64,000 nt of DNA, taken from positions 8,422-72,421 of the forward strand of contig JACPDF010000021.1 in NCBI GenBank assembly GCA_016184145.1. The letters are read 5' to 3'. Below the pieces are notes generated by a model. That model was given only the letters and a program-made list of their open reading frames with translations. It ran no database searches and had not been told where the DNA came from. Position numbers and translations under genes: made by a program. The stretch is from Candidatus Woesearchaeota archaeon (GTDB lineage: Archaea > Nanobdellota > Nanobdellia > Woesearchaeales > GW2011-AR4). How positions within the stretch are numbered: position 1 is the first letter of the stretch; every line of letters begins with the position of its first letter. This document shows, piece after piece, positions 2,230 through 42,316 of the stretch.

Positions 2230-2400
2230 ATGGTAAACAACTCCATCCAGATAAGAATTACAGTTTCTAAGGAAATTAATGACTTATTAGAAAAGGCAGC
2301 GAAAAAGCTGGGCAAAAAGAAATCAATGTTAGCTAGGGAGCTTATGGAGCAAAAATTGTATGATTTAAACTTAATACAAAAGGAGCTAAAGGAAATTTAA
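2230..2400 (+). CDS. small ribbon-helix-helix (CopG/Arc-like) DNA-binding protein
   Basis: Unlisted 56-aa ORF, MVNNSIQIRITVSKEINDLLEKAAKKLGKKKSMLARELMEQKL... It shows the beta-strand-helix-helix pattern typical of RHH regulators and lies 1 nt upstream of the module-1 pilin-like gene. Confidence 0.5.
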   Translation: MVNNSIQIRITVSKEINDLLEKAAKKLGKKKSMLARELMEQKLYDLNLIQKELKEI

Positions 2401-2401
2401 G

Positions 2402-4522
2402 ATGATAAAGAAAGCGCAAGTTTCAATTTTCATCATCCTTGGAATAGTGATTTTAGCAGCAGCTGCAGTAGTTTTTTACATAAACACAACAGCGGAAGAA
2501 GAGGAAATCGAGCCCGGAGTTTTCATTTCCACAAAAGAAATACCAACGCAGCTTGACCCTGTAAGCAATTTTGTTACACAATGTCTTGATGATGCGGCTG
2601 TTCGAGGCCTAAAGCTTATAGGCGAACATGGCGGCTATGTAGATATTAACAGCCCAGAGCTTACAAAACAGAATTTCAAAATGAGCAATGATCCTACAGA
2701 AAGTGATGCCGTGGCTTTTGCTCCCCAAAGTGATTTGAAGATTCCATACTGGTGGTACCTCGAAAGCAGCAATAACTGCCAGGAAACATGCAAGTTTGCA
2801 AGCAAAAGGCCTCCATTGAGAGATGAGGATAACTCAATAGAAAAGCAGCTTGATAGGTACATAGAAAAAAACCTGCCGGAATGCATAAACAATTTTGAAA
2901 GCTTAAAGGAACAGGGATTTGAGATTACTCAATCAAGCGCAATAAAAGCTAATACTAAAGTTGCGGAAAATGACGTGGTTGTAGTCTTGGACTATAGTTT
3001 GGAGGCAAAGAAATCAGATACAGCTTCAACTATAGACCAGTTCTTTGTAAGGGTTCCTGTAGACCTGCAGAAAATCTACAGTCTGTCTACAGACATTGCA
3101 AACATGCAGCAGAAATATCGTTTCCTCGAGAGGCAGACAATGAACCTAATCTCATCTTTTTCATCAGTTGATAAGGACAAACTGCCTCCAATTACAGACA
3201 TGAGGTTTGAATTTGGAAGCACAACAAGCTGGAGGAAGTCTGATGTAAAAAACAGCGTTACACAGGTATTGGCAAGCTACATCCCATTTTTCCAGGTTGA
3301 TGGCGCAAAGAACTTCAACCGCGGCTTCTACTCTTCAGGGCTAAAGCAGAGATTATATGACAGCATGATTATTCCCGTTGCAGACCAAGAATACAATAAC
3401 CTTGATGTCACATTTAATTATCTTGATTTCTGGCCTGCATATTTTAACATTAACTGCAATGGAGATATTTGCCAGCCAGAGTCAGCTTCCTCGAACTTAT
3501 TGGCCTTTATTGGGCTGCAAAGGTATGATTTTGCATATGACATTTCATTTCCTGCTTTAGTTGAGGTTTTTGATGAGAACGCATTAAATGGCCGGGGCTA
3601 TAAGTTCAATTTCTTTCTGGAAGCGAACGTAAGGAACAACCAAGAGTTAGAATCGGAGTTTGTGCCTTTACAGGCAGCTAATGTGCCAACAGCATCTTTC
3701 CTTTGCAATATAGAAAACAGGAACAGTGCTGATGTGACTATCAAAGCGATTGATGCTGTTGAAGCAAAGCCATTGGAGGATGTAAGCGTTACCTTGAGTG
3801 TTGCAGGAGAAAGCTGCTACATTGGGAGCACAAATGAGGATGGCACCCTGGTTGCAAAATTTCCAACCGGGACAGCCGGCGCAGTTGTAGGTTTATTAAA
3901 GCCTGATTATATTTCAAAATCGCAATTGTTTGACGCAAGCCCTGACAGGAAGCTTTCTGTCGAAGCAAAGCTTGATCCTGTCAAAGACAAAAAGATTGCT
4001 GTCAAGAAAAAGCTGCTCGAGAAAACAAACAGAGGCTGGGAGTTTACAAATAAGATTTCTGACTTAAAGCCGGAGGAGGAAGCTTTTGTAACTTTAACAA
4101 GGCTAAGTCCGGCAACAGAGGAAGACTTTGATGCGGTTGCAAGCATAAAAGGGACAAATGAAGAGCAGATCAGGCTGGCCCCAGGCAGATATGAAGTCAA
4201 TATAAACACTTTCCTGAGGGAAGACATAAGGATACCGGAAAAGAAAGTGAAGAAAAAAACTGGTTTGTTCTCGGAAGAGGAATTCACTATTCCAGGAATT
4301 GATTTTAACAGCCAGAACCCTTATCCTTCTGGCGGCTTAAGGATGAATGTTACCATAACAGAAGATGACCTGAAGAAAGGCACCATAACATTTTTTGCAG
4401 TAAGCCCTGCCCTGGAAAATGTTCCCGAGCAGCAAAGGTCAATTGACGATCTGAACCAGGCAGCTAAGATTGAAGAATACTCAAGGGTATTCGCACCATT
4501 GCTAAAGCCGGTATTCCAATAA
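2402..4522 (+). CDS. large protein with class-III (prepilin-like) signal motif, family member 1
   Basis: N-terminus MIKKAQ|VSIFIILGIVILAAAAVVFY fits [KR][GA]Q[VA]S plus a hydrophobic stretch. It shares the motifs xPYWWY and NLxxCIxxFxxF with 11741..13621 and 42317..43111. Confidence 0.6.
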   Translation: MIKKAQVSIFIILGIVILAAAAVVFYINTTAEEEEIEPGVFISTKEIPTQLDPVSNFVTQCLDDAAVRGLKLIGEHGGYVDINSPELTKQNFKMSNDPTESDAVAFAPQSDLKIPYWWYLESSNNCQETCKFASKRPPLRDEDNSIEKQLDRYIEKNLPECINNFESLKEQGFEITQSSAIKANTKVAENDVVVVLDYSLEAKKSDTASTIDQFFVRVPVDLQKIYSLSTDIANMQQKYRFLERQTMNLISSFSSVDKDKLPPITDMRFEFGSTTSWRKSDVKNSVTQVLASYIPFFQVDGAKNFNRGFYSSGLKQRLYDSMIIPVADQEYNNLDVTFNYLDFWPAYFNINCNGDICQPESASSNLLAFIGLQRYDFAYDISFPALVEVFDENALNGRGYKFNFFLEANVRNNQELESEFVPLQAANVPTASFLCNIENRNSADVTIKAIDAVEAKPLEDVSVTLSVAGESCYIGSTNEDGTLVAKFPTGTAGAVVGLLKPDYISKSQLFDASPDRKLSVEAKLDPVKDKKIAVKKKLLEKTNRGWEFTNKISDLKPEEEAFVTLTRLSPATEEDFDAVASIKGTNEEQIRLAPGRYEVNINTFLREDIRIPEKKVKKKTGLFSEEEFTIPGIDFNSQNPYPSGGLRMNVTITEDDLKKGTITFFAVSPALENVPEQQRSIDDLNQAAKIEEYSRVFAPLLKPVFQ

Positions 4523-4555
4523 AATGATTTTCAATAAAAAAAACAATGAAAAATT

Positions 4556-4614
4556 CAATAATAAAAATCCATTAAAAAATAATCAACAATAAAATAAGAA
4601 ATAATAATTAAAAA
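4556..4614 (-). repeat. conserved AT-rich ~60-nt intergenic element (copy 1 of 3)
   Basis: The reverse complement reads cattttttaattattatttcttattttattgttgattattttttaatggattttt. This is about 85-90% identical to the segments at 23888..23965 and 58141..58200. Confidence 0.5.
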
Positions 4615-7600
4615 ATGAATAAAAAATACAGACAAAAAATTGCAGTAATGCTAAGCATATTAGTTGTAATGCTGCCGATATATTCTTCCATTGTATTTGC
4701 TAATTTATCCAAAATAGAGGCCCGCGGTAAGGACAATGTGAATAATTATATGAGAGAAGAGGATTTCATCACATTCAAGGCAACCGCTTCCATATCTGGA
4801 GACAGCGCAATAACTCCAAACCAGGTGCTTTTGGGCTCTGATCTGCAGTTTGACAGCTGCAAGGCAGGCATAGACGGCTTTGACTGCACCTTAAGGTTCC
4901 CTGGGAACGGGACAACAGTATTTGACGCAAGGGCCATTCCTTACACAGTAACATTAAAGAATGATGCAGGAAATGTCGTAGAGGCAAAAACCGACAGCAT
5001 TTTTGTTGACAATCTGCCTCCGGAAATTACTTCTTTTAGTGTTGACCAGGCTCTTGTAAGCTCTGGCGTTGTAAGATTTAGTTTTGATGTTGTAGATCAT
5101 GCCTGTGCAGCCTCTTCATGTTCTGGAAAGTGCTCAGGCATCAGCAGGGTTGAGCTTTCTGACAGTAACAGCAATTACAAGGATACCATCACTTTAAACA
5201 CTGACTCATGCACTATTACTAAGGTATTTGAAACATCCTCGTTGGAGTTCTCAGAAGGTGCTCATGTAATATTGGCAAAAGCATTTGATAGGTTTGATCA
5301 GTTATCAACAGCATCAGCAGCCTTTCAGCTTGACAAAAGCGCCCCTTTCATTGACTTAAACACCTTCAAGGTTGTTGATAGCCTGGATATAGACCTAAGC
5401 TCTTTTGGAATTAACCCTGTGCCTGTGACAGTAAAGATTGACATAAAAGACACTGATTTGAATAAGGACAATGTGTTTGCTAATTTAAGCGAGCTTAATA
5501 AAAACGCCGGTCTTGGAAATGCGCAGGCTGCTTGCGGTGCGACTGAAAATGATATAACAACATGCTCATGGCAGATAAGCCTTGCTCCTGACGGCTCTGG
5601 GCTAAAGAAAGTCACTATACTCGCTTCCGACAGCTCTGGAAATAATGCAAAGACAGAGATAACAAAGAGCTTTGGGCTGGACAACGAGGGCCCTGTTGTC
5701 CTTTCTTTGGCTACTTCCCAGGTTATAGACGGCCAGAGCTTTGCTAAATCAAATAATAATACTTTTATTGCCACTTTCAGGGATGAGGCAGGAGTAAAAC
5801 CAACAGACATTAAGCTGCATGCAGACGCTCTTGTTAAGGATGCAGACTCATGCGCTCAAGTAGTGGACATATGGCAGTGCACCTGGAGCAATATCAATCT
5901 CCTCAATCCGGGAAAAGTAAAGGTCTTCATCGATACTGATTCAAAGGACAGGGTAGGTAATGCTGTTTCGGAGAAATTTGAGAGAGAGGTCGTTGTTGAC
6001 TCTGCAAATCCAAAATTGATTCAGCTGGTTGTAAAAGGCATTGGCGGAAAGCAGGAAACAATTGAAGACTTTATTATCGCAGGGGACAAGCTGCAGGTCG
6101 AGGCAGTTATAGAAGATGATAGCCTGCAGAAAGCTGTTGCAGATTTTTCCAGATTTATATTTAATGCCCAAGAGGTTGATGCAGATGCGTGCACAAAGAC
6201 TGGAGAGAAAACAGTTGTATGCTCATGGACTACTTCCAGCATAGACATAGAAGGCTTTATTGATGATTTTATAAGGTTTGAATTTACTGATATTGCAGGC
6301 AATACCCTGGAAGCCAAGGAGCCTTTGAAGGTTTTTGGGGTGACAGGAGGCGAGACTCCTGATTTCTGGCAAAGCGCTGTCCAGTGCTCCCCATCTTTAT
6401 TGGATAGGGAAACAATGCCGCTGATAAACCAGAGGGCTTTTTGTTTGGTTTCTTTAAGGCCAAAATCATTGGTGGATGATCTAGGCACATTCGAGGATGT
6501 GGAGCCCGTAAGCGCAAGCTTAGGGGAATGCAATGGAGATTTAAGCTTTGTTGACGATATTAAATTGGAAAATAATGAATTCAGCAAAGAGCCTTTGATA
6601 AGGATCAACTTCAGGAAGCAGGATGCTAACATAGATAAGCTTGATTTTCTATGCCCTATTGACATAATATCGAGGAAAGGCAACAATATTTTCACAGTGC
6701 CAGAAAAAGAAAATGTAGATATAACTTTCCAGCTCTACAACCAGCCTCTCGGAGAAGTTAGCGAGAGCGTCCAGAAAAAGATTGATGATGCAGTTGAAGA
6801 TTCAAATAATATACTGAAAGTTGCGACTTTCTTCAAAAAGATTTTCTTTTATGGTCAGAGGACTTGCGAAATTGGGAATACAATTGTCAATGTTATAGTT
6901 TTATACAAAGTTGCTGGTAAAGTATGGGCTAATTGGGATGCTGCAACTACAGGAACACCAGCAAATCCACCAGCTAAAGCGCAAAGAATATCCTGGGATA
7001 TTATAACTGAAGAAGCAAGGCAGGAAACTTTAAAGGGATGGCCATTTTTCACAAAAGCATGCAACTTTGTCAATTGCAAGACCGTTATAGATACAGGTTC
7101 TGGTGCATTAAGGGTTGATGAAACGGCTATCACATTTAAGTTTGAAGACCCGGATTCCCTTTTGGGAAAATGGAGGCAGGCAGGAAACGGAATTATTAAA
7201 ACCTTGGATGTTGAGGGTGTTGTAAGCAAATATGTAGGGGGAGGAGGCAAAGAGAGCAACCCTGCTAGGTTCATGAACCCCAAAGACAGCATTGTAGTCG
7301 CATCTTTGACAGCGTGCATTCCTGGAATAATTTACGGCTTGGACAAGTACAGGCAGATACAATGCATGTATGCTGACTGCTTGCAGACGGGCGTTGGCGA
7401 GCAGGGCCTGCCTGTATTTGCATGTGAGGACCAAAAAGGCTATGCCACATGCAAGTATGTTGTAGGAGAGGCTTTCAAAGTCATACCCATAACAGCTGCA
7501 TTTGATTATTATGCAAATTTAATAAAATCCACTTTGGCAAACCCGTTCAAGATATTGGGAGCTGGAATGGCAGCTGCATGCAACCCGGCAATTGTGGCAG

Positions 7601-7776
7601 AGCCATTTAGCTATGAAATTTGCGCAGCGGTAAAAATAGCATCTCTCCTTGGAGTCACAATACAGGAAGTGACATCAATATTTGACTCAAATACATGGAA
7701 GGTGCAGGAAGACTTTTGCGGCAGGCTGGACAAAGGCAGCTCAGAGGAAAAAAGCGGAGGCCTATTTGGGATATAA
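4615..7776 (+). CDS. giant secreted surface protein (1053 aa) with Ig-like repeats and a C-terminal Cys-rich domain
   Basis: Signal peptide MNKKYRQKIAVMLSILVVMLPIYSSIVFA. Repeated beta-rich segments follow. The C-terminal Cys pattern (CxxxGI...CL...AC...YV) recurs in the 2227-aa protein. Confidence 0.7.
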   Translation: MNKKYRQKIAVMLSILVVMLPIYSSIVFANLSKIEARGKDNVNNYMREEDFITFKATASISGDSAITPNQVLLGSDLQFDSCKAGIDGFDCTLRFPGNGTTVFDARAIPYTVTLKNDAGNVVEAKTDSIFVDNLPPEITSFSVDQALVSSGVVRFSFDVVDHACAASSCSGKCSGISRVELSDSNSNYKDTITLNTDSCTITKVFETSSLEFSEGAHVILAKAFDRFDQLSTASAAFQLDKSAPFIDLNTFKVVDSLDIDLSSFGINPVPVTVKIDIKDTDLNKDNVFANLSELNKNAGLGNAQAACGATENDITTCSWQISLAPDGSGLKKVTILASDSSGNNAKTEITKSFGLDNEGPVVLSLATSQVIDGQSFAKSNNNTFIATFRDEAGVKPTDIKLHADALVKDADSCAQVVDIWQCTWSNINLLNPGKVKVFIDTDSKDRVGNAVSEKFEREVVVDSANPKLIQLVVKGIGGKQETIEDFIIAGDKLQVEAVIEDDSLQKAVADFSRFIFNAQEVDADACTKTGEKTVVCSWTTSSIDIEGFIDDFIRFEFTDIAGNTLEAKEPLKVFGVTGGETPDFWQSAVQCSPSLLDRETMPLINQRAFCLVSLRPKSLVDDLGTFEDVEPVSASLGECNGDLSFVDDIKLENNEFSKEPLIRINFRKQDANIDKLDFLCPIDIISRKGNNIFTVPEKENVDITFQLYNQPLGEVSESVQKKIDDAVEDSNNILKVATFFKKIFFYGQRTCEIGNTIVNVIVLYKVAGKVWANWDAATTGTPANPPAKAQRISWDIITEEARQETLKGWPFFTKACNFVNCKTVIDTGSGALRVDETAITFKFEDPDSLLGKWRQAGNGIIKTLDVEGVVSKYVGGGGKESNPARFMNPKDSIVVASLTACIPGIIYGLDKYRQIQCMYADCLQTGVGEQGLPVFACEDQKGYATCKYVVGEAFKVIPITAAFDYYANLIKSTLANPFKILGAGMAAACNPAIVAEPFSYEICAAVKIASLLGVTIQEVTSIFDSNTWKVQEDFCGRLDKGSSEEKSGGLFGI

Positions 7777-7783
7777 TTAAAGA

Positions 7784-10189: not shown

Positions 10190-10213
10190 GGCATAAATTA
10201 AAAATATCTTAAC

Positions 10214-10969
10214 ATGAAAAACAACATTATAGCACAAAATTATCTGTTATTGATAAATTCCTTTAAAAGAATAAGTTTAAAGTTCTTTTTAATATTGGCT
10301 TTTGACATTCTTTTTTACTTTATTTTTATGCAGATAGGGAATTTTTTCTTGAAAATAATAGAAAAAAAGGCAGCAAATGTCGACCTTGCGCAAAACCTTC
10401 TTGGATTGAACCAGCAGGCTGCCAGTTCCTTATTGACCTCTGTAAGGGGATTTTTCTTTTTCCTTATCTTTTCCGCAATTTTATTTTTATTATTGATGGT
10501 GATTAACTGGAGCGTCTTCAAGGGCCTTATCTGGACAACAACCGCAGATAAAAAATTTAATTTCGGATTTTTTAAGAAATTTTTATTGCTGAACTTGATT
10601 TGGCTGCCATCCTGGTTTTTGCTCATATTCCTGTTTGCGGTTATAATAAACCCGGAAACATCTCCAATATTCATGATAGTCACTTTAGCTGTAGCATTCT
10701 ACTTCACCAATATACTTTACCCATTATTTCTAAAGGAGAATAAATTAAGAATAATAAAAGAAGCCTTTAAGCTTGGAATTAAAAAAATCCACCAGTTTAT
10801 TGTTCCTTACGCAATAATTATTATTCTGTTTTTTATGATATTAAATGCCTATAATCTTATTGCTATAAGGGTTAATTTGAATCCAAATGTTTTCTTTGGC
10901 ATTCTTCTGGTTTTTATCGCGTGGCTGAGGTATTATTTTGTTGAGATTGTTTACAGCCTGCACAAATGA
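10214..10969 (+). CDS. polytopic membrane protein (module-associated, paralog of 20277..21146)
   Basis: 251 aa with at least 5 predicted TM helices. It shares the segment VINxxVFKGLIW / VVINGLIWYF with 20277..21146. No GxGD prepilin-peptidase motif is present. Confidence 0.55.
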   Translation: MKNNIIAQNYLLLINSFKRISLKFFLILAFDILFYFIFMQIGNFFLKIIEKKAANVDLAQNLLGLNQQAASSLLTSVRGFFFFLIFSAILFLLLMVINWSVFKGLIWTTTADKKFNFGFFKKFLLLNLIWLPSWFLLIFLFAVIINPETSPIFMIVTLAVAFYFTNILYPLFLKENKLRIIKEAFKLGIKKIHQFIVPYAIIIILFFMILNAYNLIAIRVNLNPNVFFGILLVFIAWLRYYFVEIVYSLHK

Positions 10970-11194
10970 TTGTTTTCTACAGAAAACTATTTATATTATA
11001 ATGCAAGAGGGTTATGCAAAAAGGGGTGAGCATGATAAATTTCTATAAATTCCGCTATAAATTGCTCTGTAAAGTAATTTTCTTCACAATTTCACCAAAA
11101 GCCTTAAATATTCATATATAAATTATATATTAAATACTATTGTTAAATATATAAAACATCTATTAAATAGATATAAAACATATATAAAATAATA

Positions 11195-11353
11195 ATGAAA
11201 TTCACAAAAAAAGTCATAAAAACATCCGGAGGCCTAGTTGTAAGGGTTCCTGCAGATATTGTCAGGCTTCTTAGTCTGACAGATAAGGATTATGTTGAGA
11301 TTGATTTGACAAAAATAGACCTTAAAGAATTAAACAAGAAATCAAAATCATGA
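11195..11353 (+). CDS. AbrB/SpoVT/MazE-like swapped-hairpin DNA-binding protein
   Basis: Unlisted 52-aa ORF MKFTKKVIKTSGGLVVRVPADIVRLLSLTDKDYVEIDL..., a typical AbrB-fold signature. Its stop overlaps the next ORF's start (ATGA). Confidence 0.5.
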   Translation: MKFTKKVIKTSGGLVVRVPADIVRLLSLTDKDYVEIDLTKIDLKELNKKSKS

Positions 11354-11574
11354 AAATCAGAGATTTTCAGGACACAAGGAAAACAAAGTTTTCCGGTGTA
11401 CAGGAAATTCAAAGAATTTCCAAGTATGCCAAAAAGGCTTTAGCCTTTTTGTGCATAATGTTTAGAAATACAAAAACAAATGCCAATGAAAAAAACAATA
11501 GGAACATAAAAAATTTGCTCGAACAAAGTTCGGCACCAACTTCATTGGATTCGGCATTTTTGCATGCACAATGA
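11350..11574 (+). CDS. small basic ORF (74 aa) translationally coupled to the AbrB-like gene; possible toxin-like partner
   Basis: A 4-nt ATGA overlap with 11195..11353. No motif is recognised, so whether it codes is uncertain. Confidence 0.25.
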   Translation: MKIRDFQDTRKTKFSGVQEIQRISKYAKKALAFLCIMFRNTKTNANEKNNRNIKNLLEQSSAPTSLDSAFLHAQ

Positions 11575-11740
11575 CAATAAAGCAAAAATGCAGGCAATTA
11601 TTAATTATTTTTCCATGGTTTATGGAGTAAACCCAGAAAAAATTGAAAATTTTTTCGTTGCCGAATAATATTAAAAGTGAAATTAAACAATGACTGAACA
11701 AATGATTGTGAACATTGGATAAAAGATAGTTATTAAAAAA

Positions 11741-13621
11741 ATGTCAAAAAAAAGAGGTCAGGCATCTATATTCATGGTAATGGCAGTAATCATATTGCTC
11801 CTAGGGGCTCTTTTCTTCTATACCCAAAGGGCTTCTCTGGAAAAAGCAGAGCTGATAAGCCCAGAAATAGCGCCTGTGAAAAATTTCATAGACGCGTGCA
11901 TAAGCGATGTCGCAAGGCAGGGCATAACAATACTTGGGTTTAATGGGGGCTATATAAGCTTCCCGGATGAGATAAAAAACAATCCCAGGAGTTATCTGCA
12001 GCTTGGGCCTATAAGCAGCATAAAAAACCCTTACTGGTGGTATGACGGCATTGAAAGCGTTCCGTCAGAAAGCTTCATTGCAAGGCAGATAGAAGATTAC
12101 ATTACCTCAAATCTCGACACATGCATAAGCGACTTTAGCGCCTTTAGCCAGTTTGATGTAAGGCAAAGAGGATCTCTTGGCGTAAAAGTAACCCTTAATG
12201 AAAATGATGTTGCTGTAGATGTGAATTATCCTTTGGAGCTTACAAATAAGCTGAATAGAACCACAATAATGCTTGAAAAGTTCAAGGAAACGCTGCCCAT
12301 CAGGCTTAAGAAAGCCTATGAGATGGCAAAGGACATCTACGAGTCTGAAAAAAAGAATTTTTTCCTTGAATTTAAGACAATGGACCTTATAGCAATGGAC
12401 AAAAATATACCGACAACAGGGATAGAGACAACCTGCGGGGAAAAAGTATGGCGCGTTGACCAGGTGCAGCAAAAGCTGAAGAGGCTTCTCAATGTAAACT
12501 TGCCCTATATCAGCATAGTCAGCTCCGAATTTGATGAGAAGGTCTATGTGCCCAATCCATTCGGAGAAAATACCTATAAGGACTCCTACTATGGCAAGCA
12601 TTACAGCTGGCAAATAACAGACAAAAATTATGCTAATTTAAAAGTTTCATTTGCCTATGAGGAAAACTGGCCAATGCAGTTTTACGCAAGGCCAAGCAAC
12701 AATGGCATAATGAAGTCAAACGCCAAGAAAAGCCAGAGTTTTTTGGATTTTTTCTGCCTGCACATATGGCATTTTACATATGATGTTGTGTACCCTGTAA
12801 GGATCACCATAACTGACAATGCCCCCAAATCCGAGCCGTACCAGTTTAACTTTGCATTTGAGGTAAGCGTGGACCACAACCAGCCGAGAAGGGAAAACTT
12901 CGCATCAACATTATTCGAGCAGGCCGTTCTTGGTAATCAGGAAGAGTATTGCAATGATGTTGTGAATGATATTACCATTTATACAATGGAAAACACGACA
13001 GACCAGAAAGACATAGCCCATGTCAACCTCACATTCACATGCGGGATGTTTACATGCAACATGGGAGAGACAGACTGGCTTAGCTATGGTGCTGCTGCCG
13101 GCCTGACAAAGGCCTTCCCCTACTGCGTAAACGGCATCTTGAGGGGAAGCAAGGAAGGGTTTGAAGATAGCCAAAGATTCATGCGGACAGAGGCCCCAGG
13201 CACATATACGCTTTACCTTAAGCCAGTAAAACAATTTCAGGATTATGAGATTGTGAAACATGACTTTGACAATCCTTCTATTGAAAGCAAATTGAAGGAA
13301 AATGAGAAAGCGTCTATAACAATAAAATCCACGCAAAGTGATTTTGAAACTTTTGGAGTCTATCCTGTTGAAAAGGATTTCCAGATAAAGCTGCTCAATG
13401 ACGACCAGGAATATGAAGTCGCAATTTACCTTTCAGACGAAGACAGCATCATTGGCGGCTACAAGGGGACATGGAAAATTGCCGCATCAACAGTGTCAAA
13501 TTCAAAAAAAATAATATTTCATGTCCTGGAAAAGCAGGGGAATGATGACGAGACAGCTCTCTTTGTTTCAGGGCTTGATTCATACTCGCAAAAAGTTCCG
13601 CAGCCAGAGTTGATAGGATGA
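11741..13621 (+). CDS. large protein with class-III (prepilin-like) signal motif, family member 2
   Basis: MSKKRGQ|ASIFMVMAVIILLLGALFFY, with NPYWWY and NLDTCISDFSAF motifs. It is a paralog of 2402..4522. Its stop overlaps the downstream start (ATGA at 13618). Confidence 0.65.
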   Translation: MSKKRGQASIFMVMAVIILLLGALFFYTQRASLEKAELISPEIAPVKNFIDACISDVARQGITILGFNGGYISFPDEIKNNPRSYLQLGPISSIKNPYWWYDGIESVPSESFIARQIEDYITSNLDTCISDFSAFSQFDVRQRGSLGVKVTLNENDVAVDVNYPLELTNKLNRTTIMLEKFKETLPIRLKKAYEMAKDIYESEKKNFFLEFKTMDLIAMDKNIPTTGIETTCGEKVWRVDQVQQKLKRLLNVNLPYISIVSSEFDEKVYVPNPFGENTYKDSYYGKHYSWQITDKNYANLKVSFAYEENWPMQFYARPSNNGIMKSNAKKSQSFLDFFCLHIWHFTYDVVYPVRITITDNAPKSEPYQFNFAFEVSVDHNQPRRENFASTLFEQAVLGNQEEYCNDVVNDITIYTMENTTDQKDIAHVNLTFTCGMFTCNMGETDWLSYGAAAGLTKAFPYCVNGILRGSKEGFEDSQRFMRTEAPGTYTLYLKPVKQFQDYEIVKHDFDNPSIESKLKENEKASITIKSTQSDFETFGVYPVEKDFQIKLLNDDQEYEVAIYLSDEDSIIGGYKGTWKIAASTVSNSKKIIFHVLEKQGNDDETALFVSGLDSYSQKVPQPELIG

Positions 13622-16600
13622 AAGCAAAAAGAACATTAATCCGGTTTATTGCATTGCTCTTGCTAGAGCTGATAATACTGTATCCAGTGGAGTTTGTATA
13701 CGCCCTGAGCATTTCAAATGTGCAAATAACGGATGTAAGCTCAAACTCGGCAAGGGTGAAATGGTTTACAGATGAGGTTGCAGACGGCAAGGTAAAATAC
13801 GGGCCTACAAAAGACTTAGGATTTACCTCTAGGCATACCACTTTTATTTTTGAGCACAACCAGCTGCTGCAGGGCCTTGACTCGGAAAAAACTTATTTCC
13901 TCGATATAGAGTCATCAAACATCAACGGAGACATTGCAGTAGACAACAACAGCGGTCAGTTCTATTCTTTTACCACAAAAGACATCACGCCTCCCGCAAA
14001 AGTAGAAGGGCTTACTGTAACAGGCAGGACTAAAAATTCCATAGCGATAGCATGGCAGGCATCAAATGCCCAGGATTTAAGCCATTACAACATATTCAGG
14101 AACAATGTAAGGGTTGCAAATGCGACAGACACAATTTTTACAGACACAAACCTCAGCCCGGGATCAGCCTTTTCCTATAAAGTGTCTGCAATAGACTTAT
14201 CTGGAAATGAGGGTGCCCAGTCAGACACTGTAATTGGATCCACTGAAGCATTGGACCTCTCCAGCCCGGTAATAAGCGAAGTGGATATAGCGGAAATCAG
14301 GGACACAACGGCAATAATCATATGGCTGACAAACAAAAACAGCACCTCGATTGTTTTCTTCGGAACCGGCCAAAATCTGGATAGAAAAGAGGAAATTAAA
14401 GAACAAGTAAAAAACCACTCGGTAACCATAGGCAGCCTGGAAAAAGGTATTTCTTACAGCTTTGTTGTAAGTTCCTGCGACGAGGACAATAACTGCGCAA
14501 ACTCTTCAATATCGAGATTTGAAGCTGGACTAGGTGCAAAAGCCCCAAGTCTCAATGCAACAATACCGATGTTTGTGAATAAAAAAGAGATTGACATAAT
14601 AGGATCAACAGAGCCTTTTTCCTCGGTAAAGCTGTTTGTGAATGACTTAAACTTCCCAGTGAGAGCATTAGACAGCAAGGAAACACCAACAGGAGCATTT
14701 GAATTCCAGAATGTGCAGCTGCAGAAAGAGAATGTCATAAAGATTCTTGTTGCGGACAAAGCAGGCAACAAGAATGAAAGCACTTTTAGGGTAAGCGTTG
14801 ACACAGAAAGCCCTGTGGTGATTATCGATCAAGTTCCGGGAATAACATCAAAAAAGAATTTGACAATTGTAGGAACAGTAGATGAGCCTGTCTCCATGAA
14901 TTTCTATCTAAGGTTCGGCTCAAAAGAAAAGCCGGAAAAGATAACGGGGCTTAGTGGAGCTGCAAAAAACAACTCGATAAAGCTTGAATGGGATGAGACA
15001 AAAAATGAAGAATTTAGTCATTACATAATTTATAGGAAAGACATAGGACCTATTGCAATCACAGACTCTAAATCCTACAATTCCTACACTGACTTATTGG
15101 TCAACAAAGGCCAGGAATACACTTATTGGGTCACTGCAGTAGACAAATTCGGCAAGGAAAGCGACAAGTCAGATGTCGTCATGGTAAAAGTAATTGATGG
15201 AAGAAATGATATACCGAAGCCAAAACCTATTGAAATCCTGATAATAGAAAAGCCTGAATTAAGCATAAGCGTGAATAATACATTCTCCGAGTCATTAAAG
15301 ATTGAAAAAGACGGTGAATACACTTTAACAATAGAGGTGCTTGACAGGGCCAACAATAGGGTTGTTATTGAGCGCACAATAACTTTGGACACAAAAAAGC
15401 CTGACATAAAGATCACAAACCCACCATCCGGCACAATGATCTTTGAGAACTATGCGGGTGAGGTTGATGTCAAGGGCACCACAGAGCCGAATGCCAATAT
15501 TCATTTATACATAGAAAGGACTCCATTTGGGGGCTTAAACAAGTCTTTTGATGTAACTGCAATATTAGGGGGCATAGAAAGCATACCCGAGGCAAAATTA
15601 GACGCAAAATGCAGCGCCGGCATTGGGAGCAAAAATTTCTGCCCTGAATCAGCCGATTTCTCAGCTACAGCCGACAGCAGCGGGAATTTTGAATTTGACA
15701 ATGTTGATTTGACAAGCAGGAGCGGAGGGTTCTTAAGCATAGGGGGAGGCGCAAACATAGAGCAGGTCCCAGGAGCTCAGCTCGTACAAGAACTCAGACC
15801 GGAAACAACGAAAACCTCAAGGCTTGTTTTCATAGCAACCGACCTCGCTGGCTTAAGAAATGCAAAAGAGCATACTATAAGGATAGGCACATGCTGGTCG
15901 GGAAACCAAAGCTGGGATTTAATTCCTCTGACAGAGTTCCAGAGCCCGACATTCCTTAGCCCGCAAAGGCTTGCCGAGAACAAGGAAAGCATTTATTTCT
16001 TCTTTAATTACTCCTATATTGGCAGGGGAAAAGACGCAAAGATAGACAGTGTTTCCCTGCAAAAAGCCTGCTCAGGCACAGAAGTTTTAGGCGATAAGAG
16101 GTTTAACACAAGCTGTAAAATATTGCCTTCCGGAGGCTTCTCAACTGCAGTAAATCCGGAAGGGACTGCAACATACACGCAGATTAATCTAAACAGAGTA
16201 GAAAGAATGGACAGGTTTTTGCAGAATGACTGGAAAGATTTCTTCAATTCTGTAAGCAATGAATTGACATTTCCACTGAAGTTCACAATAAGATACAAGC
16301 ATAATGTAGAAGGCAAAGAAGTCATAGAAACGCAAACAACATGCCAGGAGATTACCTATGTATTGGATAACAGCATAATAGATCCGAGGGATATATTGCC
16401 TGACTGGCTTTTGTATGATTTCGTTGATTTCCTGCAAAATTCAATTGAAACAATAAATGATGTCAACCAGCAGCTCACCAAAGTTGTAGAGTTTGTGACT
16501 ATTGGCTGCGTTTCAACCTTCTTTTTAAGGATACCGGTGCAATTCTACAGGCGCCTTATTACTTTCAGCGAGGAAAAAATATTCCTGCTTAAGGACATAA

Positions 16601-19600
16601 CCAGCAAATTTTCTGATGGGCAAATTAAGTTTAATGTCAAAAACGATGAGGATCAGGTATATTGCAATGCTGTTGCGAACAACATCAAAAAAGACTATAA
16701 GCTTGGCACGGATAAAAACTCCTTATTCGGATTAAAGTTAAAGTATTTTAGCGATAAGGATCTAAAAAGATGCTTCCCTGAGGTTGCGGATATATGGGAC
16801 ACAGAAGCATCATTGTACAAAGCCTATAGGTACACTTGCGACAGGATTTTCGGCCATCAGACACCATCAGCATGGACGGAAAACCTTGATGATGAGAAGA
16901 TATACCAGAGAGTCCTGGAAGGCAACCAATGCCCCAATGACCAAAGCGTGTTTGGCAGGCCTATACAGGCAGTTAACTGCAGGGAAGTCTCAAGGCAATT
17001 TTTAATAGAGGAAAATTTCTTTGATGTTGGTAGTGTTTGTTTTGTTCTTCCTATTAGCACATCAGGCAGCAGAGAGAGAGGCAATCAACTTTTCCAGCTG
17101 GGCAAGCCTGTTGAAGGAGGAACAAATGTTTATGAGATAACAAGGGTAAGGGAAAGGGGCTCTTACGCGGAGACAAAGTATGTAATAAAACAATCAGAAA
17201 GGCAGTATCTTACAAATAGGCCTGAGAGATGCGAGCAATTATGCGCTGGTGGTGTTATTCAAGGTTTGCAGAAGGACACAGTGGTAATTGGCGGCATATC
17301 TTATCCTGCTTATCAAACTCCAAAAAAGAATCTGAAGGAGCCTACGGATCCACTTAAAAAAGCAATTCCTGCCTGCGTAAGTGCTGCGCAATGCAACCAG
17401 TGGGCTGAGCAAAAGCCAGAGGCTACATTTGGGGATAATGTGATAAAAATAGATTCTGCAAAAAGGCAGGGCTATACAAGCGACTGCTTCCCGCCAGCAA
17501 CAGACCTTTCCTCAATAAGCGACAATCCCCAGCAAAGGTATGAATGCTGCTGCTTAAACAGCAAAAAGGCTGAAGCACCGACACTATATTATCTTTATGA
17601 TGATCTGAACAGGTATGAGGATGATAAAAACACAAAGCAAAGCGCGTTTCAGTCAAAGAAAAATTTGGATACTCCGGAAAATCTTGCAGATGTAGAATGG
17701 AGCTACAGGTACTGGAAAGAAGGGTATATTGCCTTGTCCAAGGAAACCACGCAATCAGGCAGGAATATCCAGCATAACCAGTATAATCCAAACAGGTACA
17801 TTGAAGGTCGTGATTACCCAGCGTGCTTTGGGCAGAATAATTACCTCTACGAGGGATTTATCAGTCCGGGCGAAGGCGAAGTTGGAAAATTGGTTACAAT
17901 AGATTCCAGGCAACAGTTTGAAAGCGCGTTTTTCTGCGCGAACATAGCAGGCATACAGAACAGGCTTGTCATGCTGAACAACATGCAAAGTGCTTTAGCC
18001 AGCTGCTTAATAGATGTAAGAGAAACCGGAACTTCGGATGCTGCAGCGTGCAAGGAATTCTTTACAAGATATGTCTGCTCTAGTATATGGCAGACAATAA
18101 ATTTTGCCCAAAATTTGTTTTCAGATTCGTGCACATCATCACCCTTAGGAGTCTCGATACAGGATGAGGATGATTATGCTGCGGCTGTAAGCGCGGGCTT
18201 TAGGAGCGCAACCCAGAGCATCACTGATGCCCAATCAGAGCTTGCAGGCGAATATGGAAATGTGCAGCTTAATAATTTGCTAGGTACTGGGGCAGGAGAG
18301 GTTGCAAGGAAAGTCTGCTTGGCAGCATTCGGCTATGACTGGGACCTGAGCCTGCAGAATATTATTAATGCCGCTTACTCCCAATCATTTGAAACTCTTG
18401 TGCAAAAAACAACAGGCACCAGGGAATATTTGACAATAGATCCTACCAACGGCCAGGCAAGATATGACTACAGGGCCTCATGGATAATAAATCCCGGGTG
18501 CGATATCGATAGCTATAAAGTCGAGCTTGCTTGTGTAAGCAGATACGAGCTGAGCAAGGAAGGAGAGTTTATCGACCCGTTATCATCCATTGGAGTGCCT
18601 TCCAGAGGCATAAGATGCGATGCAGTGGGAAGCCCGGACGGAAATAACTGCGATTGCCTAAACCTTGACAAGGAGCAAACAAAGAGCTTCTTTACATCGA
18701 AAGGCAAATTGCTGCAGAACAAGCTTGTGCAGCAGGCCCAGGATGAGGTTGTCTCCTCCCTGTACAGGTACGATCACCTCAAATTCACTTTACGGCCTGA
18801 CAGGAAGCTAAAAGGAGATTTGGCAAAAACTTGCTTCCCGCCGGGGCATGAAGACGGGGTATTTTATTTCCCATTAACAGACAAAACCGCAAGGGACATA
18901 GCAGCATGCAAGCTAGAGCCCATATCAGGGGTTTTCCAGTGCACTGGCGCTTTGGACTTCTGGAGCAAGAAAGGACTGGCTAATATAGTAGATGTAACAA
19001 TAAACGGGGAAAAGGCAAAAGACAATTCATTCACAGTCTTTAAAGGGGAATCATTAATATTGACTCCGACTATATTCAAGACGCCTGGAGCCCCAAATAA
19101 ATGCCTTGTCATGCAGCTTGAGAAGCAGGGAATTGGATTAACTTCACAAGTAGAAACCATAAACGTTGATGGCACATACCAGTATTCTCCGATAACGCTT
19201 GATCAGAATGTCCAGCCTGTTCAGAATCTGGGAATTTTGCCGTCAGCTCAATTTAACGGCTGTACCACAGTAATCAACACAGGAACTCAATGCCAAGAGA
19301 TTATATCAAGGCAAAAGCCTACTATTGGAGTTTTGCAGAGAGGAAATACTCAGGATGTTGATTTGTCTATCACATTCATTGATGAAAAACCGGAAGATGG
19401 AAGGATTGACATAAGTGAAAACAGCCAAGATAAGATGGAAGTAAGTGTATTAGGAAGTGCTGTTGATTCAAGAATATTGGGAAAAGGTGGCTGGTATGAT
19501 GAAAGCAGGAAAAAGCCTGTTATTGACCTGCCACAATACGACATAAAATTGCAGGTAAATACTGTGCCTTTCGCATCAGGAGTAAAATCAGCGATCTACA

Positions 19601-20301
19601 CACAAATAATCCCATCAATCTTCGGTGGTGCAAGCACAACAACCCTTGGCAGTCAAAATATAGCCTCAGATAACATCTGGAAATTAAAGCTAAGCTTATT
19701 CGAGGCTGATGACAATACTTTCCTTTGCAGCAGGTATAATGCAGGAGAAACTGTGCAGTACCAGGGGACAAAGCAGGAAAAAACATACACAATAAGGGTT
19801 GCAGCCCAAAGACAGGATGCAGACGCTCCAAGAGTAACACTAAATATTCAACCTTCTGAAATTAAGCTTGTAGGGGAAACAGCAAAATTGACTGTTGATG
19901 TAACTGACGAGACAAAAGTAGGAAATATTGTTTTTGAATTGGCAAAGCCCGGAGGGCCAAAATTCAATTGGGATGCAGTTAATAATGAAGCCAAAAATTC
20001 GTGCATTCCAAGCGCTTTGCAGGGAAGCGGTGACAGGAAAGTCTGCTCAATAGATATTGACGGCAGCAAGCTGAATGTGGATAAAGCAGGAACATACAGG
20101 GTAACTGTAACAGCATATGATGAGGATAGAATATCACACAAGGATGTAAAGGAAGCCGCAATTGAGGTTTTGTGCGGCCCGTCATCAGATAATTCTTACG
20201 GGATATGTATGAAAGGCGGAAGCTGTGGAAGAGAAAATGTGATAGAAGGGACAACAACGTGCCAGCAGGGATTTGAATGCTGCAGAAAATTCCAGGGTTA
20301 A
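13618..20301 (+). CDS. giant secreted protein (2227 aa) with multiple fibronectin-III-like repeats and Cys-rich domains
   Basis: Signal peptide present. There are at least three FN3-like segments (ISNVQITDVSSNSARVKWFTDE...; PPAKVEGLTVTGRTKNSIAIAW...; SPVISEVDIAEIRDTTAIIIW...). The central and C-terminal Cys-rich regions share a pattern with the 1053-aa protein. Confidence 0.8.
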   Translation: MKAKRTLIRFIALLLLELIILYPVEFVYALSISNVQITDVSSNSARVKWFTDEVADGKVKYGPTKDLGFTSRHTTFIFEHNQLLQGLDSEKTYFLDIESSNINGDIAVDNNSGQFYSFTTKDITPPAKVEGLTVTGRTKNSIAIAWQASNAQDLSHYNIFRNNVRVANATDTIFTDTNLSPGSAFSYKVSAIDLSGNEGAQSDTVIGSTEALDLSSPVISEVDIAEIRDTTAIIIWLTNKNSTSIVFFGTGQNLDRKEEIKEQVKNHSVTIGSLEKGISYSFVVSSCDEDNNCANSSISRFEAGLGAKAPSLNATIPMFVNKKEIDIIGSTEPFSSVKLFVNDLNFPVRALDSKETPTGAFEFQNVQLQKENVIKILVADKAGNKNESTFRVSVDTESPVVIIDQVPGITSKKNLTIVGTVDEPVSMNFYLRFGSKEKPEKITGLSGAAKNNSIKLEWDETKNEEFSHYIIYRKDIGPIAITDSKSYNSYTDLLVNKGQEYTYWVTAVDKFGKESDKSDVVMVKVIDGRNDIPKPKPIEILIIEKPELSISVNNTFSESLKIEKDGEYTLTIEVLDRANNRVVIERTITLDTKKPDIKITNPPSGTMIFENYAGEVDVKGTTEPNANIHLYIERTPFGGLNKSFDVTAILGGIESIPEAKLDAKCSAGIGSKNFCPESADFSATADSSGNFEFDNVDLTSRSGGFLSIGGGANIEQVPGAQLVQELRPETTKTSRLVFIATDLAGLRNAKEHTIRIGTCWSGNQSWDLIPLTEFQSPTFLSPQRLAENKESIYFFFNYSYIGRGKDAKIDSVSLQKACSGTEVLGDKRFNTSCKILPSGGFSTAVNPEGTATYTQINLNRVERMDRFLQNDWKDFFNSVSNELTFPLKFTIRYKHNVEGKEVIETQTTCQEITYVLDNSIIDPRDILPDWLLYDFVDFLQNSIETINDVNQQLTKVVEFVTIGCVSTFFLRIPVQFYRRLITFSEEKIFLLKDITSKFSDGQIKFNVKNDEDQVYCNAVANNIKKDYKLGTDKNSLFGLKLKYFSDKDLKRCFPEVADIWDTEASLYKAYRYTCDRIFGHQTPSAWTENLDDEKIYQRVLEGNQCPNDQSVFGRPIQAVNCREVSRQFLIEENFFDVGSVCFVLPISTSGSRERGNQLFQLGKPVEGGTNVYEITRVRERGSYAETKYVIKQSERQYLTNRPERCEQLCAGGVIQGLQKDTVVIGGISYPAYQTPKKNLKEPTDPLKKAIPACVSAAQCNQWAEQKPEATFGDNVIKIDSAKRQGYTSDCFPPATDLSSISDNPQQRYECCCLNSKKAEAPTLYYLYDDLNRYEDDKNTKQSAFQSKKNLDTPENLADVEWSYRYWKEGYIALSKETTQSGRNIQHNQYNPNRYIEGRDYPACFGQNNYLYEGFISPGEGEVGKLVTIDSRQQFESAFFCANIAGIQNRLVMLNNMQSALASCLIDVRETGTSDAAACKEFFTRYVCSSIWQTINFAQNLFSDSCTSSPLGVSIQDEDDYAAAVSAGFRSATQSITDAQSELAGEYGNVQLNNLLGTGAGEVARKVCLAAFGYDWDLSLQNIINAAYSQSFETLVQKTTGTREYLTIDPTNGQARYDYRASWIINPGCDIDSYKVELACVSRYELSKEGEFIDPLSSIGVPSRGIRCDAVGSPDGNNCDCLNLDKEQTKSFFTSKGKLLQNKLVQQAQDEVVSSLYRYDHLKFTLRPDRKLKGDLAKTCFPPGHEDGVFYFPLTDKTARDIAACKLEPISGVFQCTGALDFWSKKGLANIVDVTINGEKAKDNSFTVFKGESLILTPTIFKTPGAPNKCLVMQLEKQGIGLTSQVETINVDGTYQYSPITLDQNVQPVQNLGILPSAQFNGCTTVINTGTQCQEIISRQKPTIGVLQRGNTQDVDLSITFIDEKPEDGRIDISENSQDKMEVSVLGSAVDSRILGKGGWYDESRKKPVIDLPQYDIKLQVNTVPFASGVKSAIYTQIIPSIFGGASTTTLGSQNIASDNIWKLKLSLFEADDNTFLCSRYNAGETVQYQGTKQEKTYTIRVAAQRQDADAPRVTLNIQPSEIKLVGETAKLTVDVTDETKVGNIVFELAKPGGPKFNWDAVNNEAKNSCIPSALQGSGDRKVCSIDIDGSKLNVDKAGTYRVTVTAYDEDRISHKDVKEAAIEVLCGPSSDNSYGICMKGGSCGRENVIEGTTTCQQGFECCRKFQG

Positions 20302-21146
20302 AAATGGGCTCTAAACATATAGTTATCAGCTCATTGAAAGAATCTTTTTTGCTCATTAAAAAAAACAAAAAGGTATTTTTGCTGGTTTTTATTCTGCAGG
20401 TCTTATTTTTTTTATTGATTGTTATGGTTAATGTTTACCACATGCCGCAGATATTGCAAAGCGCGAAAGATGCCATAGACTATGCTGAGGCATTAAACAT
20501 AAATCCCCAGACTGCCAATATCGACATGCTGCAGAAGAAAAACCCGCTTGGAGAAGACCCATTATTAATAAGCAGAAATTATGATTTAATTATAAAAAAT
20601 TCATTTTATTTGCTGTTTTCTATTTTTTTAATATTTGTTGTTATTAACGGCTTAATATGGTACTTTTCCTCAAATATAAATGAAAAAGGCAAAAATTTGT
20701 TTTCATTGAAGAACATCTTGCGCTATCTCTCAAGATTTTTTATAATAGCCATCATATTATCTGTGCCATTGTATTTTTTTGCTTATGCGCTTGTAAAAAC
20801 ATCTTTCAGCAGCTTTCTCTCCGCAAAGCCAGCGGATTTTGTTCCGTTATTGCTAATCGCAGCCATAGCCATTTATTTCATTTATATATCAATTCCAATA
20901 CTGGATAAAATCAAGTTTAAAAGCCTGGCAAAAAAATTATTTTCAATAGGAACAAAGAACTTCATTCCTGTAATAATTTCCTATTTGATTATTTTAATTT
21001 TGATAATGGCCTCTTTATTTTTGATTTTTTATTTGATAGAGCTGAATCTGTTTTTATTGCTGATTGCTGTTTTATTGTCTATTTTTGTTTTTGCCTGGGC
21101 TAAAATTTATTTTTCAGTTGTTGTTAAGAAGTTAAGCGGCTTGTGA
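20277..21146 (+). CDS. polytopic membrane protein (paralog of 10214..10969)
   Basis: 289 aa with multiple TM helices. It overlaps the 3' end of the giant gene by 25 nt and has the same architecture as 10214..10969. Confidence 0.55.
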   Translation: MLQKIPGLKMGSKHIVISSLKESFLLIKKNKKVFLLVFILQVLFFLLIVMVNVYHMPQILQSAKDAIDYAEALNINPQTANIDMLQKKNPLGEDPLLISRNYDLIIKNSFYLLFSIFLIFVVINGLIWYFSSNINEKGKNLFSLKNILRYLSRFFIIAIILSVPLYFFAYALVKTSFSSFLSAKPADFVPLLLIAAIAIYFIYISIPILDKIKFKSLAKKLFSIGTKNFIPVIISYLIILILIMASLFLIFYLIELNLFLLLIAVLLSIFVFAWAKIYFSVVVKKLSGL

Positions 21147-42314: not shown

Positions 42315-42316
42315 TT

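Follow-up and report, generated by a model that had tools for sequence, protein, structure and literature searches.

Archaeal substrates of type IV filament (TFF) systems are recognized by a class III (prepilin-type) signal, in which a short basic N-region, a small residue at position -1, a Gln at +1 and a hydrophobic helix form the signature of PibD/FlaK-type substrates, and class III signals are also carried by proteins that do not build filaments, such as the sugar-binding proteins of the Sulfolobus bindosome. In the Sulfolobus pair SlaA/SlaB, a large beta-sandwich-rich outer protein is held on the cell by a membrane-anchored partner. Woesearchaeota rank high among the DPANN archaea in both abundance and diversity, and we know of no cultured member. 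Large proteins with an SLT domain have been noted in Woesearchaeota and Pacearchaeota, with attachment to bacterial walls proposed for them (PMC8204110, PMC9723730), and unknown families specific to these two groups were flagged as module 98 of a bulk protein-family study (PMC8204110). Here we analyse a 64-kb stretch of a Candidatus Woesearchaeota metagenome-assembled genome (MAG; contig JACPDF010000021.1, positions 8,422 to 72,421; hereafter the window) that harbours a ~19-kb cluster of nine plus-strand open reading frames (ORFs), in which proteins with class III signals, giant secreted proteins and polytopic membrane proteins are encoded side by side and very probably work together as a surface or secreted system.

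All nine ORFs lie where an earlier reading of this DNA, made by a model from the letters and their translations (the sequence-only reading), had placed them. They are named R1, A1, B1, C1 and D1 (block 1) and R2, A2, B2 and D2 (block 2), with lengths in amino acids (aa):

R1, 2230-2400, plus strand: 56 aa, ribbon-helix-helix-like, translationally coupled to A1.
A1, 2402-4522, plus strand: 706 aa, class III (prepilin-type) signal, N-domain of ~380 aa and C-terminal beta-sandwich domains.
B1, 4615-7776, plus strand: 1053 aa, Sec-secreted, an array of about seven Ig-like sandwiches and then an all-helical, Cys-rich domain at the C-terminus.
C1, 7784-10189, plus strand: 801 aa, N-terminal anchor, Pro/Thr-rich linker, hypervariable middle and conserved C-terminal domain of ~250 aa.
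D1, 10214-10969, plus strand: 251 aa, polytopic membrane protein with about six hydrophobic segments by hydropathy, paralog of D2.
R2, 11195-11353, plus strand: 52 aa, AbrB/MazE-like (SpoVT-AbrB).
A2, 11741-13621, plus strand: 626 aa, paralog of A1 with class III signal and domain order as in A1.
B2, 13618-20301, plus strand: 2227 aa, Sec-secreted, N-terminal FN3 and Ig-like domains, Cys-rich core at ~300-1800 and variable C-terminal region.
D2, 20277-21146, plus strand: 289 aa, polytopic membrane protein with about six hydrophobic segments, paralog of D1.

A census of one genome per GTDB species, in which locus ORFs were assigned to families by BLASTP and then by family hidden Markov models (HMMs), recovered the cluster in 78 species-level genomes (their loci are labelled L001, L003 and so on), all of which are designated Woesearchaeota, Nanoarchaeota or Nanoarchaeia or carry bin names that we judged doubtful ('uncultured Methanosarcinales', 'Aenigmatarchaeota', 'uncultured archaeon'). 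The genes recur in the order R1-A1-B1-C1-D1-(R2)-A2-B2-D2 down to ~35% identity; among the 26 loci with full 10-kb flanks, B1, C1, D1, A2, B2 and D2 were all detected in 18, and 17 of these 18 show the canonical order. Variants comprise a locus with A2 and B2 only (L084), one with block 1 inverted (L049) and a few in which D1 is not detectable. The tight junctions described by the sequence-only reading also follow from the coordinates, with a gap of 1 nucleotide (nt) between R1 and A1, a 4-nt overlap of A2 and B2 (13618-13621) and a 25-nt overlap of B2 and D2, although D2 may instead start at its second ATG, at 20304. Across the relatives, the 4-nt A2/B2 overlap recurs in 23/52 loci, the R1/A1 junction lies within +/-30 nt in 11/13 (with a 4-nt overlap in six of those) and the B2/D2 junction within +/-30 nt in 32/39. 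The more distant loci L005, L006, L045, L053 and L067 lack R2, and in them the stop of D1 directly adjoins or overlaps the start of A2, which argues that the ancestral state was a single operon-like cluster to which R2 and its spacer were added later. Thus, the conserved unit is one cluster rather than two independent regulator-led blocks. The idea that unrelated secreted and membrane proteins came to lie side by side by chance, which draws on the lack of annotation only, is contradicted by this synteny in dozens of species, by the translational coupling and by the co-duplication described below, and is so improbable that we give it practically no weight.

The two halves of the cluster share a triad of genes and not, as the sequence-only reading had it, a four-part module repeated twice. 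A1 and A2 are certain paralogs on alignment, by BLASTP (E=7e-48, 26% identity over ~640 columns) as well as by hhalign (probability 100%, E=2.4e-84). For the membrane proteins the proposed relationship emerged from profile-profile comparison only, as D1 and D2 are not significantly similar by BLASTP (E=0.23), whereas full-length alignment of their profiles (built from 51 and 37 orthologues) reached a score of 93 (probability 97.9%, E=4.5e-13) and control comparisons with 20 column shuffles, one reversed alignment and four unrelated window membrane proteins scored no higher than 20.2 (shuffles at E of at least 0.047), so that D1/D2 paralogy appears clear at the profile level. BLASTP of the giant pairs, B1/B2 among them, found nothing significant. 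The B1 and B2 profiles can be aligned in two places: the Ig-like region at the N-terminus (E=9.5e-15), whose fold is generic, and a Cys-rich segment of ~70 aa common to B1 886-958 and B2 1427-1495 (E=1e-6 with whole profiles; E=1.2e-4 and a score of 46 with sub-alignments, compared to at most 22.4 in shuffles). Ig-like arrays and Cys-rich motif together lend moderate support to a B1/B2 relationship. C1 showed no similarity to B1 or B2 by profile comparison and has no counterpart in block 2. Derivation of C1 as a split-off part of B2 was ruled out (hhalign probability 1%). Likewise, both blocks do contain an ORF for a small DNA-binding protein, but R1 and R2 are unrelated: their paralogy was ruled out, as hhalign found no profile similarity and their weak family signals (RHH/RelB/CopG-like and AbrB/MazE-like, respectively) point to different folds. 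Since C1 occurs in the first half only and R1 and R2 are unrelated, the repeated unit is the triad A-B-D. A lack of profile similarity within the paralog pairs had been named beforehand as fatal to the idea of a repeated module; the A and D pairs are clearly similar and the B pair is so in part. Each paralog has its own orthologues across many species, indicating that the duplication is ancient and fixed and not the local tandem event that had been assumed.

Both A proteins carry the elements of a class III signal, with a basic N-region, K/R at -2, G/A(/S) at -1 and a hydrophobic stretch of ~20 aa (KKA|QVSIF in A1 and KRG|QASIF in A2), and the prepilin-like N-termini suspected earlier are borne out by strict conservation: across the A family K/R at -2 and A/G/S at -1 are followed by Gln at +1 and Phe at +5 (each in 103/103 sequences) and then by ~20 hydrophobic residues, even though the A1 and A2 families share only ~25% identity. 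The motif is present in 19/19 A1 and 67/72 A2 orthologues, compared to 0/34 for B1, 1/50 for B2 and none for D. Such conservation is expected of a peptidase recognition site bordering the hydrophobic segment, and an uncleaved signal anchor would not need it; we infer that A1 and A2 are processed as prepilins. A is a very large uncharacterised family, with 9,088 clusters at 50% identity found in public metagenomes by A-profile HMM search at E<=0.001, and 1,913 at E<=1e-30. A1 and A2 each have >120 orthologue clusters at 40-87% identity, all of them 'hypothetical', from Woesearchaeota/Nanoarchaeota bins and lacking Pfam domains.

The A proteins match the signature of archaeal TFF substrates and, as large non-pilin proteins with a class III signal, resemble the bindosome proteins. 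The cluster differs from these systems in that no ATPase, platform or peptidase gene is linked to it, the globular domains of A are not pilin folds and position +5 of A is an invariant Phe; B, C1 and D have no counterpart in the TFF loci described so far. The confident AlphaFold model of A1 shows a single N-terminal helix, the N-domain and CnaB/transthyretin-like sandwiches; a fold search run with the whole model returned only generic beta-sandwich matches and no PDB match for the N-domain, and the long alpha-1 helix packed on a beta-sheet head that defines the pilin fold was not seen in it. The sandwiches resemble those of Gram-positive pilins and adhesins, a likeness to sortase-dependent proteins that extends to the generic beta-sandwich fold only, as A has no sortase signal and no sequence similarity to them. 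A2 is weakly matched by Pfam Tad (PF13400; 15.8 bits against a cutoff of 22.3, E=0.018) and A1 is not, so that the likeness to the Tad/Flp pseudopilins TadE/TadF/TadG lies in a below-cutoff match to the hydrophobic N-terminal helix and in a TadG-like layout with a large extracellular part; no tad genes are nearby, and the NCBI name of A2, 'Tad domain-containing protein', rests on that helix only.

These features bear on the possibility that A1 and A2 (and some C1) are true minor pilins that prime or cap a type IV filament, with B as tip adhesin in the manner of minor pilins and PilY1, so that the cluster would be accessory to a TFF system encoded elsewhere, a proposal that overlaps with the one developed below. 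While the conserved class III motif, the weak TadE/G-like match with the NCBI name of A2 and the description of archaeal TFF systems with PilY-like adhesins, including in DPANN (bioRxiv 10.64898/2026.04.22.720090), would fit with it, A is predicted to have only a short N-terminal helix and a globular part of non-pilin fold, class III signals occur on non-filament proteins too, and the locus gene tables that we examined (L001, L003, L005 and L006) contain no ATPase or platform gene. We therefore judge it unlikely, though a real contender.

B1 and B2 have classical Sec signals with AxA-type sites. The B1 model (pLDDT 77) consists of about seven Ig-like sandwiches (30-708) and, with moderate confidence, an all-helical C-terminal domain (717-1037) that includes the most conserved, Cys-rich stretch of the protein; a fold search with this model gave generic beta-sandwich matches only. 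The N-terminus of B2 matches Pfam fn3 (5.7e-16) and Big_13, its core (~300-1800) is conserved with many invariant Cys, and its C-terminal quarter is variable. In C1, only residues ~550-801 are conserved: its orthologues range from 616 to 2227 aa, with a middle region of a few hundred to ~1,900 residues, and compared to its closest relative 30% of the residues are identical as against 77-84% for the neighbouring genes. A class III-like N-terminus (K-G-[IL]-V-S) occurs in 17/40 C1 orthologues, and the window copy (KKAHQLS) does not fit it. D1 and D2 contain no invariant residue. The rates at which the components diverge are apparent from the identity of the window copies to those of four relatives (for C1, identical residues over query length):

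R1: L008 98%, L047 93%, L033 92%, L067 77%.
R2: L008 92%, L047 82%, L033 76%, L067 absent.
A1: L008 84%, L047 57%, L033 44%, L067 36%.
B1: L008 77%, L047 56%, L033 32%, L067 30%.
C1: L008 30%, L047 19%, L033 25%, L067 11%.

Within the cluster, constraint is thus strongest on the small DNA-binding proteins and weakest on C1, a contrast that fits a regulator with a fixed target on the one hand and an exposed, fast-evolving surface component on the other.

No Pfam, NCBIfam, PHROG or PDB-sequence family was found for A, D, the conserved domain of C1 or the cores of B1 and B2, in accord with the earlier remark that the combination is not a described system. PDB profile searches of A, B1, B2, C1 and D yielded FN3/Ig matches or nothing (for D no relative), Pfam scans of the D, B2 and C1 ortholog sets returned no family for the core domains, and the D orthologues have no Pfam relative and matched no platform family. 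All core proteins are named hypothetical proteins in databases, A2 excepted. By these searches, at least five new protein families are represented (A, the B core, the C1 C-terminal domain, D and R1). Our literature search found no description of the cluster, its duplication or its families; the building blocks are known (class III signal, Ig/FN3 arrays, an occasional SLT), and the cluster, the duplication and the families are new to the literature searched.

A further A-like gene lies elsewhere in the window:

A3 module, 40764-43111, minus strand: A3 (42317-43111, 264 aa), then a 516-aa Sec-secreted protein (40764-42314).

A3 aligns to the A profile with hhalign (probability 99.8%, E=1e-29) over A columns 11-216, which is the first half of the N-domain, and its motif, RRGQVSIF, was classified as class III by the motif scan; the 516-aa protein directly after it belongs to no family. 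Orthologues of A3 in L001 (E 1e-43) and L003 (E 1e-39) are located just upstream of the main cluster, directly before a gene for an SLT-domain protein. Homology of the 516-aa partner to the SLT protein of L003 or to B/C1 was not supported. The window thus has three A-type genes with a secreted partner directly after them and L084 has such a pair on its own, and lytic domains appear in several places among the relatives: SLT near the N-terminus of C1 in L040 (E=2.6e-25) and L027 (4e-27) and also in C1 of L080 and L081, for a total of 4/35 C1 orthologues, SLT at the C-terminus of B2 in L049 and L079, and a glucosaminidase domain instead of SLT in one B2 orthologue. These occurrences argue that A plus secreted partner is a recurring unit and that peptidoglycan-lytic domains have been recruited to it repeatedly. 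The large SLT proteins already noted in Woesearchaeota and Pacearchaeota (Castelle et al. 2015 and 2021, 'fam00969', module 98; Vigneron et al. 2022) are of the same type as C1 of L040 (2227 aa) and L027 (1706 aa) and B2 of L049 and L079, have a taxonomic range equal to that of the cluster and were likewise proposed to attach to bacterial walls. Those studies describe a protein family only, and not a nine-gene cluster or its duplication, and the window copies carry no SLT.

One C1 orthologue contains a PT-HINT/Hint/intein-type match (E=2.5e-27), either an intein or a pretoxin-HINT module. Such species-specific payload-like domains (SLT, glucosaminidase, the single PT-HINT/Hint), together with hydrophobic helical Cys-rich segments in B and a D protein that lacks invariant residues and directly follows the giant protein, could be taken to signify contact-dependent antagonism of the polymorphic-toxin type, with B and C1 delivering lytic or membrane-active payloads and D providing immunity or self-protection. 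However, conservation in B and C1 falls on the cores and C-termini, where a toxin would have a variable tip, D has a paralog and keeps its position throughout the group rather than varying by strain, and the Hint match may be an intein, as inteins are common in this genome, making this scenario very improbable.

How could the components act together? Since A, B and D were co-duplicated and are translationally coupled, each A-B-D triad may form its own complex, in which A and/or D would hold B, a giant Sec-exported Ig/FN3 array with a Cys-rich helical core and no anchor of its own, on the cell, with D as the small six-helix membrane protein of each triad. After cleavage, the N-terminal helix of A would either remain embedded in the membrane or become part of a type IV filament whose assembly machinery is encoded elsewhere; given the short helix of the A1 model, A may be membrane-anchored only. 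C1 would be a stalk anchored in the membrane, its exposed region diverging fast and its conserved C-terminal domain serving for docking. From such a stalk, and from the murein lytic transglycosylase found on C1, B2 or the A3-type partner in some species, it follows that the apparatus may contact, and in some lineages locally digest, the envelope of neighbouring, probably bacterial, cells. R1 probably autoregulates the cluster, and R2 would have been added later, in one subclade, ahead of the second triad. The idea of adhesion or cell contact put forward by the sequence-only reading has thereby gained indirect support, from the hypervariability of C1 and from the lytic domains in C1/B2 orthologues and beside an A3-type gene elsewhere. 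Our preferred reading, for which we consider the chances evenly balanced, is that the cluster encodes a lineage-specific surface or cell-contact apparatus that touches, and in some species locally lyses, the envelopes of neighbouring bacteria.

Several observations weigh against this reading. We know of no host for Woesearchaeota, and the co-sorting study cited in PMC11606122 is described there as having found no cell-cell associations. Neither an SLT (PF01464) nor another lytic domain is present in B1, C1, B2 or the 516-aa A3 partner of the window. The helix of the A1 model (3-31) is of transmembrane length and is not the long alpha-1 helix of true pilins. As stated earlier for the window, no type IV assembly ATPase (T2SSE) or prepilin peptidase, nor a platform protein (T2SSF), was found among its 45 ORFs scanned for protein families (nearly all ORFs >150 aa included), and the neighbourhood tables of L001, L003, L005 and L006 list no ATPase, platform or peptidase gene. 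This machinery could be encoded elsewhere in the genome. In favour of the reading, Woesearchaeota express archaellins (PMC11606122), from which a class III peptidase should exist in them. Finally, the near-universal syntenic presence of the cluster also fits a housekeeping envelope structure, that is an S-layer-like or sheath scaffold with membrane anchors that follows the logic of SlaA/SlaB and involves no host contact. The SlaB match, however, comprises generic beta-sandwiches only, with no sequence homology, and the anchor is at the opposite end (N-terminal in the present cluster), which moreover has many more components, including hypervariable and enzymatic parts. In addition, separately annotated S-layer genes are among the most expressed Woesearchaeota transcripts (PMC11606122), known S-layer loci do not resemble a set of eight to nine genes that contains a duplication, and a scaffold does not readily account for a hypervariable C1 or for lytic transglycosylase and glucosaminidase domains in orthologues. 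A housekeeping scaffold is, in our estimation, unlikely, though likewise a real contender.

As to the putative regulators, R1 is the most conserved gene of the cluster (30/56 positions invariant in 15 species). Its pattern of a beta-strand, a helix, a G-x-x-x-S turn and a second helix is compatible with a ribbon-helix-helix protein, and its family matches are weak (NCBIfam RelB-like, E=8.6e-6, 25.9 bits against a cutoff of 50; Pfam NikA-like, E=0.04; PDB CopG, E=0.58). R2, present in 37 loci of one subclade with 19 invariant positions, gives weak matches to Pfam MazE_antitoxin (PF04014; E=0.0075 and 16.6 bits against 24.7 for the window copy, E=1.7e-4 and 21.9 bits for the L001 copy) and to PDB MazE (E=0.087). 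Two non-coding regions accompany these genes:

Divergent intergenic region, 1956-2229: AT-rich, between a minus-strand membrane-protein gene (807-1955) and R1.
Spacer holding R2, 10970-11740: AT-rich, GC ~0.32.

The first is likely the promoter/operator region. Within it, upstream of R1, two ATACTTAAAATATACTT-like repeats (motif ATAC(A/T)TACTTAAAATAT-like) lie 43 nt apart, at 2033-2049 and 2076-2092, as parts of 45-nt repeat units. R1 may use them as operators, or they may be chance occurrences in AT-rich DNA. Wherever R2 is present, the D1-R2 gap is at least 78 nt. An exact 12-nt direct repeat, ACAAATGATTGT, at 10962-10973 and 11698-11709 flanks the R2-containing spacer, which is missing in deeper-branching lineages; near this point toxin-antitoxin pairs are inserted in L003. 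As those lineages lack the spacer, the repeat may be an insertion scar, or it may be due to chance. A 74-aa ORF that overlaps the R2 stop (11350-11574, ATGA) has a homologue in 0/84 loci and is probably not a gene.

Three toxin-antitoxin pairs interrupt the L003 cluster with its order intact (PIN/RHH at 15501-16187, HicAB at 18970-19428 and PIN/MazE at 20197-20806), and many relatives have small extra ORFs between A1 and B1 and between B1 and C1 that the window lacks, as in L001 (12157-12306 and 15388-15747). Similar ORFs of ~104-137 aa precede C1 in L015, L023, L027, L038, L040, L050 and L053; the ORFs ahead of C1 match its profile and could be N-terminal pieces split off from it. The 'uncultured Methanosarcinales archaeon' labels, attached to many cluster-bearing genomes (L012, L014, L018 and others), belong to binchicken MAGs, and the Aenigmatarchaeota label to one genome; judging by the genes they carry, these bins are probably of Woesearchaeota type and mislabelled. 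A search of IMG/VR found nothing related to the A family, PHROG matches were limited to generic FN3 in B2, and the chromosomal flanks of the cluster are conserved; a viral or mobile-element origin was rejected as far as these three lines reach.

On the flanks, the minus-strand gene at 807-1955, divergent from R1, encodes a 382-aa single-pass membrane protein with Cys-containing repeats; it has homologues at the same position in L001, L003, L039 and L051 and may be part of the system. The first ORF of the window (22-810) was rejected as the equivalent of the SLT gene found upstream in L001. Converging on D2 with a 15-nt overlap, the minus-strand gene at 21132-22472 encodes a 446-aa protein with an HExxH-like motif (HETAH) and an acidic low-complexity C-terminus, which has no family match and is kept downstream of D2 in L008, L009, L012 and L033. 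Exact matches of its proteins assign the window to a 73.7-kb contig of a Candidatus Woesearchaeota MAG (locus tags HYU50_019xx). Elsewhere, the window encodes the archaeal markers eRF1, topoisomerase I and an intein-bearing phosphoenolpyruvate (PEP) synthase; the intein, with a LAGLIDADG domain, splits this PEP synthase/pyruvate-phosphate dikinase-like gene (46141-49797, minus strand), and a free-standing LAGLIDADG ORF lies at 26916-27776 (minus strand).

The product of the cluster is probably a surface structure that depends on the class III signal; that it is moreover a distinct kind of host-contact machine is a tentative proposal. In its boldest form, which we likewise put forward as doubtful but possible, it would be a Woesearchaeota-wide machine that attaches to and opens the envelopes of partner or prey cells, built of two A-B-D complexes and an exchangeable, fast-evolving C1 'warhead' stalk, aided by the prepilin pathway and independent of any known pilus, secretion system or S-layer. 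Woesearchaeota devote ~19 kb of a genome of ~1 Mb (a group-level figure) to this cluster, which consists almost wholly of protein families that have no annotation, and the 'large lytic transglycosylase proteins' already noticed in these archaea are now placed in a defined multi-protein context. The cluster thereby offers concrete targets for proteomics, cryo-electron tomography labelling, co-folding and heterologous expression, and an envelope-opening machine, if true, would give this uncultured lineage its first candidate for a molecular basis of host interaction.

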